Shown here: positions 1-4,237 of the stretch, piece after piece | Layout: the number at the start of each line of letters is the position of its first letter | Position numbering within the stretch: position 1 is the first letter of the stretch | Virus record (IMG/VR): IMGVR_UViG_2778261156_000001 | DNA length: 4,405 nucleotides | Direction: 5' to 3' (one strand) | Source of the DNA: a virus | Taxonomy: Duplodnaviria > Heunggongvirae > Uroviricota > Caudoviricetes | Made by a program: the position numbers and the translations under genes | Notes under the pieces: generated by a model | Seen by the model: only the letters and a program-made list of their open reading frames with translations | Database searches by the model: none | Told to the model about the DNA's origin: nothing

Positions 1-47
1 GGTTTACCTGCACCGTCTTTCAGTACACCTGAAATCTTTACTGCCAT
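1..47 (-). CDS. stf: Side tail fibre protein, 5' end only (first 15 codons; gene continues beyond the window start)
   Basis: Minus-strand ATG at 45..47 followed by an open frame to the window edge, translating MAVKISGVLKDGAGK. This matches the N-terminus of lambda Stf (orf-401) as I recall it, and the gene sits directly downstream of lom as in lambda. A G-rich Shine-Dalgarno-like stretch (GGGGTG) lies just upstream on the minus strand. Only 47 nt are in the window, so the call rests on this short match plus synteny. Confidence 0.55.
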   Translation of the reverse strand, partial: MAVKISGVLKDGAGK

Positions 48-56
48 ATTCACCCC

Positions 57-86
57 ACAAAAAAGCCCGCCTGAACCGGCGGGCTG
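57..86 (-). terminator. Rho-independent terminator downstream of lom
   Basis: Seen in sequence: inverted repeat AGCCCGCC (64..71) / GGCGGGCT (78..85) with a 6-nt loop. On the minus strand the 8-bp GC-rich stem is followed immediately by TTTTTT (complement of the A-run at 58..63). It lies 27 nt past the lom stop codon (112..114). Confidence 0.6.
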
Positions 87-111
87 TCATAACACTGTGT
101 TACCTGGCTAA

Positions 112-711
112 TCAGAACTTATAACCGACACCCACGATGAAACCGTCAGTGCGCCAGTCGCCACTGCCGGAGCCTTCATAAGCAATATCAATGGCCACGG
201 ATTCGGTCGGGTTAAACTGCACGCCAGCCCCCCACGCCAGAGACGTGTTGCTGCGGCGACCGTCATCACTTCCGGTCAGCACTTCGTGCGTTTTCCCCTT
301 GTTGTCAGTTACGCGGAGATAATCCCCGGAGAAAGTCGAAATACGGCTGTAAGCCACACCCGCCATCGCATACGCGCTGAACCATTCATTCACGCGCACA
401 GACGGCCCCGCCATCACGCTGAACCAGCGGTTACGCACGGAATCTTCATGCCAGCGGGTATCGCTGTAATGAGTCAGCTGGCGATTCTTGTCTTCTGCAT
501 AGCTGAATGACGTCACCATCCCCAGCGTGTCCGTAAACTCATAACGGTATTTCACGTTAATCCCGTTAAGATCATCGCTGCCGGGAACGTTCGTCGAGGC
601 ATGAAGATACCCCGCGCTCAGCGTGGACTGATGTTCAGACGCCCATGCAGGCGCACCGGATACGACCAGACAGATGGCTGCGGACAAAATGGCTGCACAA
701 ACTTTACGCAT
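112..711 (-). CDS. lom: Lom outer-membrane protein, Ail/Lom/OmpX/PagC family 8-stranded beta-barrel; lysogenic-conversion (moron) gene
   Basis: 199-aa ORF. N-terminus MRKVCAAILSAAICLVVSGAPAWA-SEHQ is a typical Sec signal peptide with an AxA cleavage motif. The mature protein is rich in alternating aromatic/hydrophobic residues and ends in ...GVGYKF, a C-terminal Phe typical of outer-membrane beta-barrels. Near-identical over most of its length to phage lambda Lom as I recall it. GAGAGG Shine-Dalgarno at 717..722, 5 nt before the ATG. Position immediately downstream of J matches lambda. Confidence 0.95.
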   Translation of the reverse strand: MRKVCAAILSAAICLVVSGAPAWASEHQSTLSAGYLHASTNVPGSDDLNGINVKYRYEFTDTLGMVTSFSYAEDKNRQLTHYSDTRWHEDSVRNRWFSVMAGPSVRVNEWFSAYAMAGVAYSRISTFSGDYLRVTDNKGKTHEVLTGSDDGRRSNTSLAWGAGVQFNPTESVAIDIAYEGSGSGDWRTDGFIVGVGYKF

Positions 712-732
712 AATTACCTCTCGCTTTTCTGC

Positions 733-760
733 AATAAAAAAGGCGTCATTCCTGACGCCC
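733..760 (-). terminator. Rho-independent terminator between J and lom
   Basis: Seen in sequence: inverted repeat GGCGTCA (742..748) / TGACGCC (753..759) with a 4-nt loop. On the minus strand the RNA would read GGGCGUCA-GGAA-UGACGCC followed by UUUUUUAUU (complement of 733..741). It lies 22 nt past the J stop codon (782..784) and about 20 nt before the lom Shine-Dalgarno. Confidence 0.6.
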
Positions 761-781
761 TTTATTGGGGTTATAACAATT

Positions 782-3700
782 TCAACGAATACTGATGCCG
801 GAAGCAGCCTTTTTGGTCACAATCACCGTACAGTCGGTGATATTGCCTGCCCCCTGATTGCCTTTCTGGAAAATCTTAAACTCCAGAGTGACGCTTCCCC
901 TGCCACTCGGCATATCAATAACCGCACTGTAACTACCGGGAATGGCCCCTTTAGTTTCTCTGGATGCGATTAATACGCCGTTTTTGCGAACTTCAAAACC
1001 ATACCCCGTGTACCTTGTACCTCCCGAGTTATCACCACTTCCCGGATCGTCATACGCTATACCGTTAAAGATAATGGGCGGAATAATGATTTGACGGTCA
1101 AAGTTATGATCATCGCTGATGGTGACTGTAACCGTCCCGTCTGGTGTTTCCGTGTTACCCCACGTACCAGCCTTTTTCGGGAATGATTTGGATACTGTTT
1201 TAACAAAATCACCTCTGACCTGATTCGCTTCCAGCATACCCTTAATCGTACAGTTTTCATTTATCGTGACGTTGTTGAGCGTCCCGGAGTTCGCATTCAC
1301 ACTGCCACTGATATCCGCATTTTTAGCGGTCAGCTTTCCGTCCGGTGTCAGGGAAAATACCGGTGGATTTCCACCACTGGTAATGGTGGGGGCCGTCAGG
1401 CGTTTGAGGAACACGTCGTTCATGAATATCTGGTTGCCCTGCGCCACAAACATCGGCGTTTCATTCCCGTTTGCCGGGTCAATAAACGCGATACGATTGG
1501 CGGCAACCAGAAACTGGCTCAGTTTGCCTTCCTCTGTATCCTCCATGCTGAGGCCAAGCCCCGCGACATAATGCTTACCGTCTTCGGTCTGCTCAATTTT
1601 GACGCCCCACATGGCATTCCATTTATCGTTGGCGTCCTTCCACTCTTTCGAAAACTCCTCCAGTCTGCTGGCGTTATCCTCCGTCAGCTCGACTTTTTCC
1701 AGCAGCTCCTTGCCGAGATGGGATTCGGTTATCTGGCCTTTGAAAAAATCCAGGTAACCTTCCGCATCATCGCTCGCCCGACCGACAGCCTCCACGAATG
1801 TCGATTTGCCGACGGTGTTCACACTGCGAACGTAAAAATAATAATCATGGCCCGGTTTGATATTGATACTGGCGGCTATCCAGTACAGCGCCGTGCCAAG
1901 ATAGCGGGCTGTGGTTTCAACCTGCCTGATATCCGCAATCCGCTTTTCCGAGAACCAGAACTCAAACTGTACCGTCGGATCATAAACCGCAAGATGCGGC
2001 GTGGCGGTTATCTGAAAATAGCCCGGCGTCAGCTCAATCCGCGACGGCGCTGTCGGTGCGGCAATCCGGAACGATACCGATGCCGGATCGCCCTGCTGCC
2101 CCCAGGCATTTGCCGCCCGGACTGTTAGCCTGTAGTTTCCCAGCGCCAGTTGCGTGAAGCGGTATGTGGTTTCCGTCGTCCGGGCCGTGCTGACCAGCCG
2201 CTCACTGCCATCATCCGCTGCCACGGTCAGGCGAAGCATAAAGCTCACCCCCTTCACCACCTTCGGCGTATCCCAGCGCGCCAGCACCTGGTATTCCCCG
2301 CTGTCTGCGGTGACTTCTGCGGTCAGATGCTGCACTGCTGGCGGCGTGACACCATTCACCGTGCCGCTCTGGTCACCGTCAAAGTGCGCCCCGTTATCCA
2401 CGATGGCTTCTTTCTCCGGTACATGCTGCACGGCAGTGATGGCATACGTGCCGTCATCGTTCTCACGGATACTCACGCAGCGGAACAGGCGCTGGCGCAG
2501 CGTCGGCAGCTTCAGCCCCCATACGCTGTATCCGGCAACGCCGTCAGGAACACGGCTCACTTTTACCTTCACGCCGTCGGTGACGGACTGGACCTCCACG
2601 CTGACCGGATTGCCACTTCCGTCAACCAGGCTTATCAGCGTGGTACCGGAGGATGGCAGCGTGATTTCACGGTCGAGCGTCAGCGTCCGGGTCTGGCTGT
2701 TCACCGCCAGCACGCGCCCGCCGGTGCTGATCCCCGCATAGTCATCATCGCAGATTTCAATAACATCACCCGGCACATGGCGAAGCCCTTCGGCACCCAC
2801 GCTGAAATCCACGGTCTGCGTCTCCAGCAGCTCCGTTTTAATCAGCCACAACCCGGCGCGGTGTGCCTGCCCCCGGCTGGTACAGCCAAAGGCATCCATC
2901 TTCGTGACGTTACGACCGTAACGGGCAATGGCCTGCGTGTCCTCCACAAGCTCTGTCGCCGTCTCCCAGCCGTTATCCGGGTCAATCCAGTTCACCTCAA
3001 CGGCATTATGGCGGTCCTTCAGGGCGCTGAAGCTGTAGCGGAACGGCGCGCCATCATCCGGCATCACCACATTACTGCGGTTATAGGTCCACACCTTATC
3101 CGACGGTCGGTCCTGCACGAACGTCAGCGTCTGCCCGTTCCATACCGGCATACAGCGCATCGCCGAGCAGAAATCACTGAGAACATCCCACGCCTTACGC
3201 TGTGTGGTCAGGTAGGCATTACAGGTGATGCGCGGCTCCGTGCCGCCAAAACCATTCGGTACCAACTGGTCGCAGTACTGGCCGATAACGTACAGCGCCC
3301 ATTTGTCCACATCTGCCGCACCAAGACGTTTCCCCATGCCGTAGCGCGGGTGGGTCAGCATATCCCACAGACACCAGGCCATGTTGTTGCTGTATGCTGG
3401 CTTTAACGTTCCGTCCCAGATACCGCTGTATTGCCGCGTCTGCGGGTTATAGTTCGACGGCACCTGCAGAATACGCCCGCGCAGATGATAATTACGGCTC
3501 ACCTGCTGGCTGCCGAACTGCTCCGAATCCACCCGTACGCCGACCAGTGCCGTGTTCGGGTAGCACTGTTTCACATCGATGATTTCGGTGTATGACGACC
3601 AGAGCGTTTTGTTCTGCAGCTGGTCTGTGGTGCTGTCCGGCGTCATCCTGCGCATCCGGATGTTGAACGGGCGCGGCGGCAGATTATCCACCACTACCGA

Positions 3701-4195
3701 GGCCAGATACTGCGAGGTGGTTTTGCCCTTAATGGTGATGTCTTTTTCCGTCACCCAGCCACCATTACGTTGTATCTGAACCAGCAGGCGAACTTCCGAC
3801 GGATTCCTGTCCCCCTTTGAGGTGGTTTCCACCAGTGCCTGCACACCGAAGGTAAAGCGCAGACGGTCGATGTTTGCCGACGTGATGGTCCGGGTGATCG
3901 GCGTGTCATATTTCACTTCCGTACCCAGCACCGTCTCGGAGCCGGAGGATTCAAATCCCTCCGGCGGTGACTGCTCCTGCTCACCGGCCCGGAACACCAC
4001 CGTGACGCCGGAGATGTTGGTATTCCCCTCACTGTCCAGCACCGGCGTACTGTTCAGCAGCACGCTTTTTAATCCCTCCACAGGACCTTCAACCGGCCCT
4101 TCACTAATGGCATCGATCACACTCAGCAACTGCGTGGATTTGAGGTTGTCCTTCGCTTCGCGCGGGGTATGCCCCTTACTGCTGCCTTTACCCAT
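782..4195 (-). CDS. J: Tail tip attachment / host specificity protein J (central tail fibre); the C-terminal ~160 aa form the receptor-binding domain
   Basis: Single 1137-aa ORF (3414 nt including stop) filling most of the window. N-terminus [34 protein letters not shown]... and long internal stretches match lambda gpJ as I recall it. The size matches the ~1130-aa lambda protein. GGAG Shine-Dalgarno at 4204..4207, 8 nt before the ATG. Flanked by I upstream and lom downstream exactly as in lambda. The coding strand is GC-rich (~57-65% over 2400..2520) with a strong coding-frame signal. Confidence 0.97.
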
Positions 4196-4217
4196 TCCTC
4201 ACGCTCCATAAACGACA

Positions 4218-4237
4218 AAACCGCCCGCAGGCGGTTT
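4218..4237 (-). promoter_or_regulatory. Hairpin in the I-J intergenic spacer; possible RNA structure or weak attenuator, function unknown
   Basis: Seen in sequence: AAACCGCC (4218..4225) / GGCGGTTT (4230..4237) with a 4-nt loop. On the minus strand the stem is followed by UUUUGUCGUUU and then the J Shine-Dalgarno. The stem is short (5 GC pairs plus AT pairs) and the T-tract is interrupted, so a functional terminator is doubtful. Confidence 0.3.

Follow-up and report, generated by a model that had tools for sequence, protein, structure and literature searches.

Lambda lom and related cargo genes

Lom of phage lambda is cited in reviews as a moron product. Transcription of lambda lom has been reported in lysogens, and reviews place it among the few genes expressed there; one microarray study left it undetected in lambda lysogens. 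Osterhout et al. (2007) stated that little is known about the lom promoter, and theirs was the single open-access paper in which the phrase 'lom promoter' was found. Literature searches yielded no mapped lom transcription start or promoter. For the lom gene of Phi24B, experiments showed constitutive expression in lysogens, not coupled to phage regulation. Lom-type genes occur in prophages of most E. coli genomes and are routinely called lysogenic-conversion or virulence-associated genes. The literature on adhesion and serum resistance concerns lambda Lom.

A typical moron in the sense of Juhala and Hendrix has a recognisable sigma-70 promoter and a deviant GC content. The morons of HK97 and HK022 (for example, HK97 gene 15) are, like lom, extra genes of the tail operon, absent or replaced in relatives and equipped with their own intrinsic terminator. 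Cargo of the Cor or N15 gp22-gp23 type (mEp390, HK022, N15) occupies the same site downstream of J as lom, with a terminator directly before the fibre gene, and encodes outer-membrane or membrane proteins that are unrelated to Lom; in mEp390, unlike the locus described here, J and the cargo have no annotated terminator between them. The Phi24B/933W-type lom of Stx phages also belongs to the Ail/Lom family and has a downstream intrinsic terminator, but it is distant in sequence, lies in another genomic context and is preceded by a 90-nt AT-rich spacer without a terminator.

The J-lom-stf region

The window (the whole stretch of 4,405 nucleotides that was analysed) has the gene order of lambda J-lom-orf401 (stf), with every gene on the minus strand. 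Its features are as follows.

1-45, minus strand: start of stf (side tail fibre), first 15 codons, MAVKISGVLKDG... (sequence; mEp460 annotation)
57-86, minus strand: intrinsic terminator between lom and stf (fold, scans, variants, lambda sequence, mEp460 and Ayreon annotation)
112-711, minus strand: lom, 199 aa, an Ail/Lom-family outer-membrane beta-barrel protein (PF06316)
733-761, minus strand: intrinsic terminator between J and lom (fold, strict scan, compensatory changes, mEp460 and Ayreon annotation)
768-776, minus strand: conserved TTATAACCC motif just past the J stop codon (17 of 19 spacer variants, flanks variable)
782-4195, minus strand: J, tail tip or host specificity protein (open reading frame list, 1137 aa; six J-specific Pfam domains)
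4208-4237, minus strand: weaker terminator-like hairpin in the spacer between I and J (fold; Ayreon terminator annotation)
from 4256, minus strand: tail assembly gene, terminal part (open reading frame list)

In the phages mEp460 (JQ182728) and Ayreon (MF807953), J-lom-stf is essentially the same DNA as in the window, with nothing substantially different. Positions 1-1400 are 99.4% identical to mEp460, prophages in several complete E. coli genomes are 99.9% identical to the window, and matches to it are present in 4985 of 5426 complete E. coli genomes. The DNA is not lambda itself. In the GenBank records of mEp460 and Ayreon, one rho-independent terminator separates J from lom and another separates lom from stf, both placed as in the window, and a promoter for lom is missing; the annotators of mEp460 did mark consensus promoters in other parts of that genome. 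This phage encodes a Q-like regulator of late genes. The arrangement is already known, since both terminators stand in GenBank and the unmapped lom promoter is on record in the literature. An earlier note on this DNA, made from its letters alone, was correct in both observation and interpretation but restated that annotation and that gap. What is added here are hairpin statistics and covariation, a cassette boundary at the J stop codon, a GC content without anomaly, the distance from lambda Lom and an anatomical case for overriding both terminators in lytic growth. The significance is small, and no new mechanism is implied.

J contains the domains Phage-tail_3, Ig_J, FNIII-A_GpJ, Ig_J_second, Phage_Tail_Tip and Ig_GpJ_C. 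Lom matches PF06316 (Ail_Lom) over its full length (residues 1-199 on profile positions 1-199; E 1.1e-123), and its 410.9 bits against a curated cut-off of 23 place it in the Ail/Lom family; it also matches PHROG 108, 'Lom outer membrane protein' (2e-109). Read by eye, the translation has both the signal peptide (MRKVCAAILSAAICLVVSGAPAWA followed by SEH..., with AWA/SE at the junction) and the C-terminal aromatic residue (...VGVGYKF) typical of outer-membrane barrels.

In alignment, Lom of the window and Lom of lambda are 48% identical overall, with the last ~40 amino acids identical. The gene is a mosaic: the first ~160 codons are strongly diverged from lambda lom (window 112-711 compared with 666-1286 of the lambda locus), and from the last ~40 codons through the 3' spacer and terminator to the start of stf the sequence is near-identical to lambda. 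Because the 5' part is diverged and everything from the 3' part onward is so close, a recombination breakpoint lies inside lom.

Two terminators flank lom

A strict filter (stem of 6 bp or more, 4 or more of them GC pairs; loop of 3-8 nt; 6 or more T among the 8 nt that follow) returned exactly two sites on the minus strand of the window, one on each side of lom, and none on the plus strand. Markov shuffles gave an expectation of 0.08 such sites per strand and never more than one. Both sites are intergenic, and on the coding strand each has a GC-rich stem-loop with a U-run directly after it. Of the four sites that the filter found in the late region of mEp460 (23 kb), two flank lom, one lies inside the protease/scaffold gene and one follows the major tail protein gene. 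A general-purpose scan called the site between lom and stf on the minus strand and the site between J and lom on the plus strand only; the minus-strand call was missed at the latter because greedy extension of the stem through the A-tract and T-tract consumes the T-run.

The spacer between J and lom reads ...CCCCAATAAAG-GGCGTCA-GGAA-TGACGCC-TTTTTTATTGCAGAAAAGCGAGAGGTAATT-ATG on the minus strand. The stem GGCGTCA/TGACGCC at 742-760 closes a GGAA loop (GNRA) and is followed by TTTTTTATT at 733-741. It is GC-rich and 7-9 bp long, with an A-tract on its 5' side and a U6 run at 736-741. The minus-strand fold of 51 nt has a free energy of -17.6 kcal/mol (z = -4.75), and none of 200 shuffles was as good.

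Conservation of this hairpin was assessed in 80 IMG/VR and 34 GTDB loci encoding Lom relatives, which provided 19 distinct spacer variants. The 7-bp stem was 98.5% paired across the variants, compared with 57% or less in slid controls. Compensatory changes affected two of the seven pairs, G-C to A-U in 5 sequences and C-G to U-A in 7, and one-sided substitutions in the stem were absent from all 19. The stem occurs as GGCGTCA/TGACGCC, GGCGCCA/TGGCGCC and GGCACCA/TGGTGCC, and nearly all variants have a GNRA tetraloop, either GGAA or GAAA. Complementary A- and T-tracts flank the hairpin (742-770), with a weaker plus-strand tail, CTTTATTG, so that it may possibly terminate transcription in both directions.

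The lom leader (712-732, minus strand) contains the Shine-Dalgarno sequence GAGAGG at 717-722, and a 37-nt block from the U-run to the ATG (709-745) is invariant in 36 related class-A sequences. As the interval from the U-run to the lom ATG is only 21 nt, a promoter cannot fit downstream of this terminator.

The lambda hairpin at this junction has another sequence, CGTCCG-GGAA-CGGGCG followed by TTTTATTAT (about 621-636 of the lambda locus, L002), with the same GGAA loop. It is weaker (6 bp with one G-U pair), and its spacer lacks TTATAACCC and has a TATTAT hexamer overlapping the U-run. The terminator between lom and stf and the start of stf, on the other hand, are near-identical in lambda and the window, and the Lom C-terminus is identical.

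The spacer between lom and stf reads ...AGCCCGCC-GGTTCA-GGCGGGCT-TTTTTTGTGGGGTGAAT-ATG on the minus strand, the stem-loop AGCCCGCC-GGTTCA-GGCGGGCT lying at 64-85 and the U-run TTTTTT at 58-63. The fold has a free energy of -20.7 kcal/mol (z = -2.5). This hairpin varies little, and its changes are mostly wobble-preserving and rarely disruptive, so it is uninformative on covariation. It has no plus-strand T-run. The stf ATG is 13 nt past the U-run, which leaves stf without room for a promoter of its own.

The earlier note had placed intrinsic terminators before (733..760) and after (57..86) lom. Fold, strict scan and public annotation agree with it on both, with covariation in addition for the first, and the terminator-bracketed unit that it described between J and stf is indeed present; the insulating role that it gave the unit is likely and is taken up below.

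A third, weaker hairpin in the spacer between I and J, AAACCGCC-UGCG-GGCGGUUU followed by UGUCGUUUAU, folds with -24.4 kcal/mol (z -3.1). It fails the strict U-run rule and passes with a relaxed tail rule only (mEp460 14900-14923).

Cassette boundaries and the status of lom as a moron

Alignment of 900 nt upstream of lom from 72 distinct sequences revealed an abrupt boundary. Over the last ~450 nt of J (782-1231), which encode the receptor-binding domain and are lower in GC (47%), other J classes are 28-50% identical to the window; from near the J stop codon on, identity is again 92-100%. The shared lom cassette starts TGA-(4 to 7 nt)-TTATAACCC, with TTATAACCC as its left edge. Several receptor-binding classes of J (those of loci L006, L023, L064, L002 and L122) are joined to the same lom cassette. 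Because one cassette joins divergent J classes, a promoter in the 3' end of J, including its last ~100 nt, would not be inherited with lom, and because all J classes carry it, the lom allele does not co-vary with receptor specificity.

Other genes replace lom at this junction. In phage 1720a-02 the fibre gene is separated from J by an unrelated membrane peptide of 46 aa, and in mEp390, an HK97-like phage, by N15 gp22/gp23-like genes and cor; both phages have a terminator just before the fibre gene. The junction of J and stf is a general cargo site. These lom-less junctions came from annotated phages, the pattern 'J stop - terminator - stf start' having 0 matches in IMG/VR. In PPompW (PPompW_EH2201) a window-type lom is truncated by foreign DNA. 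In L069, L121 and one further IMG/VR locus, foreign DNA replaces the sequence upstream of the hairpin or leader, or truncates lom; it probably consists of insertion sequences.

lom only partly earns the label of moron that the earlier note had given it. Presence or absence at one site is clear, with replacement in 1720a-02 and mEp390 and two lom alleles that are 48% identical, and the gene has its own terminator (58-85). Its composition, however, does not deviate: GC is 55.7% (GC3 62.5%) in lom and 56.3% (GC3 67.0%) in J, and the compositional outlier of the region is the J receptor-binding segment (47.3% GC) rather than lom. Sequence scans for a promoter of its own gave no site above chance or near control promoters. 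The locus thus differs from the HK97 and HK022 morons in three respects: no recognisable promoter, a GC content equal to that of J and an additional terminator upstream.

The mosaic breakpoints, at the J stop codon and inside the 3' end of lom, allow a different view of the hairpins, namely that they serve mainly as stabilisers or processing sites at mRNA 3' ends, or as 'boundary sequences' that promote exchange of modules. Hairpins at other junctions of the late operon (between I and J, and after the major tail protein gene) also fit such a role. Both hairpins beside lom nevertheless have a GC-rich stem with a perfect U6 immediately 3', and the upstream one has a 5' A-tract as well, which is the full signature of a terminator and not merely a hairpin. 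The roles are not mutually exclusive, but as the main function of these hairpins stabilisation or exchange is improbable.

Search for a lom promoter

The earlier note had found no convincing sigma-70 -35/-10 pair upstream of lom and had proposed a weight-matrix scan. A consensus scan found no minus-strand promoter anywhere in the window. Weight matrices for the -35 and -10 elements, with spacer weights and a bonus for TG (extended -10), were then applied to the window, three other J classes and lambda. The matrices were textbook frequencies, and five promoters (PR, PL, lacUV5, lac P1 and PRM), which scored 10.5-14.3 bits, served as controls. The best minus-strand site in 701-1400, TTGACC-19-CATTAT, lies inside J, 360 nt upstream, and scored 9.0-9.8 bits; the mean best score of 700-nt Markov shuffles was 11.3 +/- 1.8. 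No sigma-70 site above chance or near the controls was present in the 700 nt upstream of lom, and the claim of the note therefore holds. In the other J classes and lambda, no site reached the controls. Such scans miss weak or activator-dependent promoters, and the options with which the note had hedged (a promoter farther inside J, dependence on another factor, or expression by read-through alone) are still live alternatives.

Several weaker candidates were rejected. A promoter-like motif shared by four J classes, 250-261 nt before the lom ATG, scored 5.5-7.5 bits only, lies on a conserved 'NG..I[Y/F]' coding motif with an offset of ~6 nt between classes and is upstream of the terminator. Read by eye, a sigma-54 candidate (TGGCAC-N5-TTGCA) has its TTGCA at 730-734 but wrongly spaced upstream bases, and a sigma-32 candidate (TTGAAA...CCCCAT) has a spacer of only 9 nt. 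Within J, 36 related sequences differ at only one site over a 58-nt stretch (946-1004, minus strand). This stretch overlaps TTGAAG-15-TATTAA, which weakly resembles a promoter, and similar weak motifs occur in three other J classes; these motifs were judged to be driven by coding sequence.

The conserved TTATAACCC motif contains a -10-like TATAAC (770-775), extended by TG (TGtTATAAC, 770-778) in window-type variants only. TGtTATAAC has neither the key final T nor a -35 element. If TATAAC were a promoter all the same, transcription would start near 763 and the hairpin would lie at the 5' end of the transcript as a stabiliser or attenuator, instead of ending the J transcript. The motif is kept in 17 of 19 spacer variants between variable flanks, it forms the left edge of the cassette common to J classes, and the 37 nt from U-run to ATG are invariant. 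Against this, the near-invariant final T is missing from the hexamer, only window-type variants have the TG extension, neither J class has a -35 element, and one variant (L084) has TTTAAC instead. Most transcripts would end at a hairpin and U6 placed at about +4 to +30, no competing anti-terminator pairing is available in the 52-nt leader, and in lambda the motif is absent upstream of the hairpin. A promoter at TATAAC is accordingly considered very improbable. The same low standing is given to the broader proposal that TTATAACCC, hairpin, U-run and leader (709-776) form a self-contained regulatory unit, with the hairpin as 5' attenuator or stabiliser of a transcript that a non-canonical promoter at TATAAC would begin right at the hairpin, which we strongly doubt. 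Were it true, lysogenic lom expression would be set by factor-controlled read-through and not by a classical moron promoter.

Proposed expression of lom in lytic growth and in the prophage

In lambdoid phages, Q-modified RNA polymerase starting at the late promoter reads through the terminators of the late operon. The account that we consider likely is that lom is a cargo gene inserted at the junction of J and stf in the late tail operon of a lambdoid prophage, between two terminators that Q can override, and that it is insulated in the lysogen and served by a weak promoter if it is expressed there. During lytic growth Q-modified polymerase would ignore both terminators, so that lom would be co-transcribed with J and transcription would continue into stf/tfa. 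Such read-through of both sites by Q-antiterminated late transcription is indicated because the start codons of stf and lom lie only 13 and 21 nt past the respective U-runs. Since the fibre genes need read-through in lytic growth, the terminators would act on unmodified polymerase only, that is, in the prophage state.

In a repressed prophage, unmodified polymerase would stop at both sites. The upstream terminator would keep stray transcription of J, especially from the AT-richer receptor-binding segment, out of lom, and the downstream one would shield the fibre genes (stf/tfa) from any lom transcript. Lysogenic expression of lom, if any, would come from a weak, non-consensus or factor-dependent promoter, possibly with leakage through the upstream terminator.

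Several lines of evidence favour this account. The only two strict sites in the window flank lom, where 0.08 were expected per strand. Lambda keeps a hairpin with a U-run, though of different sequence, between J and lom and has the same downstream terminator. Other lambdoid cargo at the junction also ends with a terminator before the fibre gene. The compensatory changes in the upstream stem, the place of two of the four strict mEp460 sites beside lom, the Q-like regulator of that phage, the lack of a promoter near the controls and the reported lysogenic expression of lambda and Phi24B lom count for it as well. There are also points against it. With a strong upstream terminator and no promoter between this and the start codon, appreciable lysogenic expression is hard to explain, and the hairpin between I and J indicates that punctuation of the operon is not wholly specific to lom.

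The array study in which lom was undetected in lambda lysogens also counts against it, and counts in favour of lom of the window being simply a late gene that has no lysogenic promoter and is expressed by lytic Q read-through, the hairpins being punctuation of the late operon. No promoter above chance was found in 700 nt upstream, the mEp460 annotators searched for consensus promoters and marked none for lom, the GC and GC3 of lom resemble those of J, and the allele shares just 48% identity with lambda Lom, the one reported to be expressed in lysogens. However, both lambda lom and the distant Phi24B lom are reported to be expressed in lysogens, weak or activator-dependent promoters escape weight-matrix scans, and the fact that two of four strict terminators in 23 kb flank a 600-bp gene suggests selection for insulation. 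Purely late expression is thus rather unlikely here, and likely insulation of a cargo gene, as set out above, is preferred.

The earlier note described lom as a classic gene of lysogen expression, for which there is documentation in lambda and Phi24B; carried over to this allele, at 48% identity to lambda Lom, it is uncertain, as is the association with adhesion and serum resistance. Lysogenic expression should not be assumed for every lom allele. The architecture sharpens the old question of the lom promoter, with a strong terminator 21 nt before the start codon and the edge of the cassette at the J stop codon.

Additional observations

Rfam was searched with the window (E-value mode) and with the loci of Phi24B and 1720a-02, giving sub-threshold chance matches or none. 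A non-coding block of ~90 nt, among the sequences without an Rfam match, follows J in 1720a-02 (L122 7205-7290) and lom in Phi24B (L117 1810-1900). Its pattern is AAAACCGTA..TATGCG.GGGTGCCTTT.GGCTGATGGC.GGAGGG..ACCTGAAGGCC.GATGTG.AAAGGCCCCG.

About 15 matches at ~46% identity to Lom of the window (loci L092-L105 and L107-L109) lie on low-coverage contigs of unrelated genomes, assigned to Neobacillus, Kitasatospora, Pseudomonas, Shewanella, Bradyrhizobium, Desulfosporosinus and other genera. One of them (L092) carries the lambda spacers on both sides of lom, and the rest of the set represents the same tblastn match. These sequences look like lambda DNA contaminating the assemblies.
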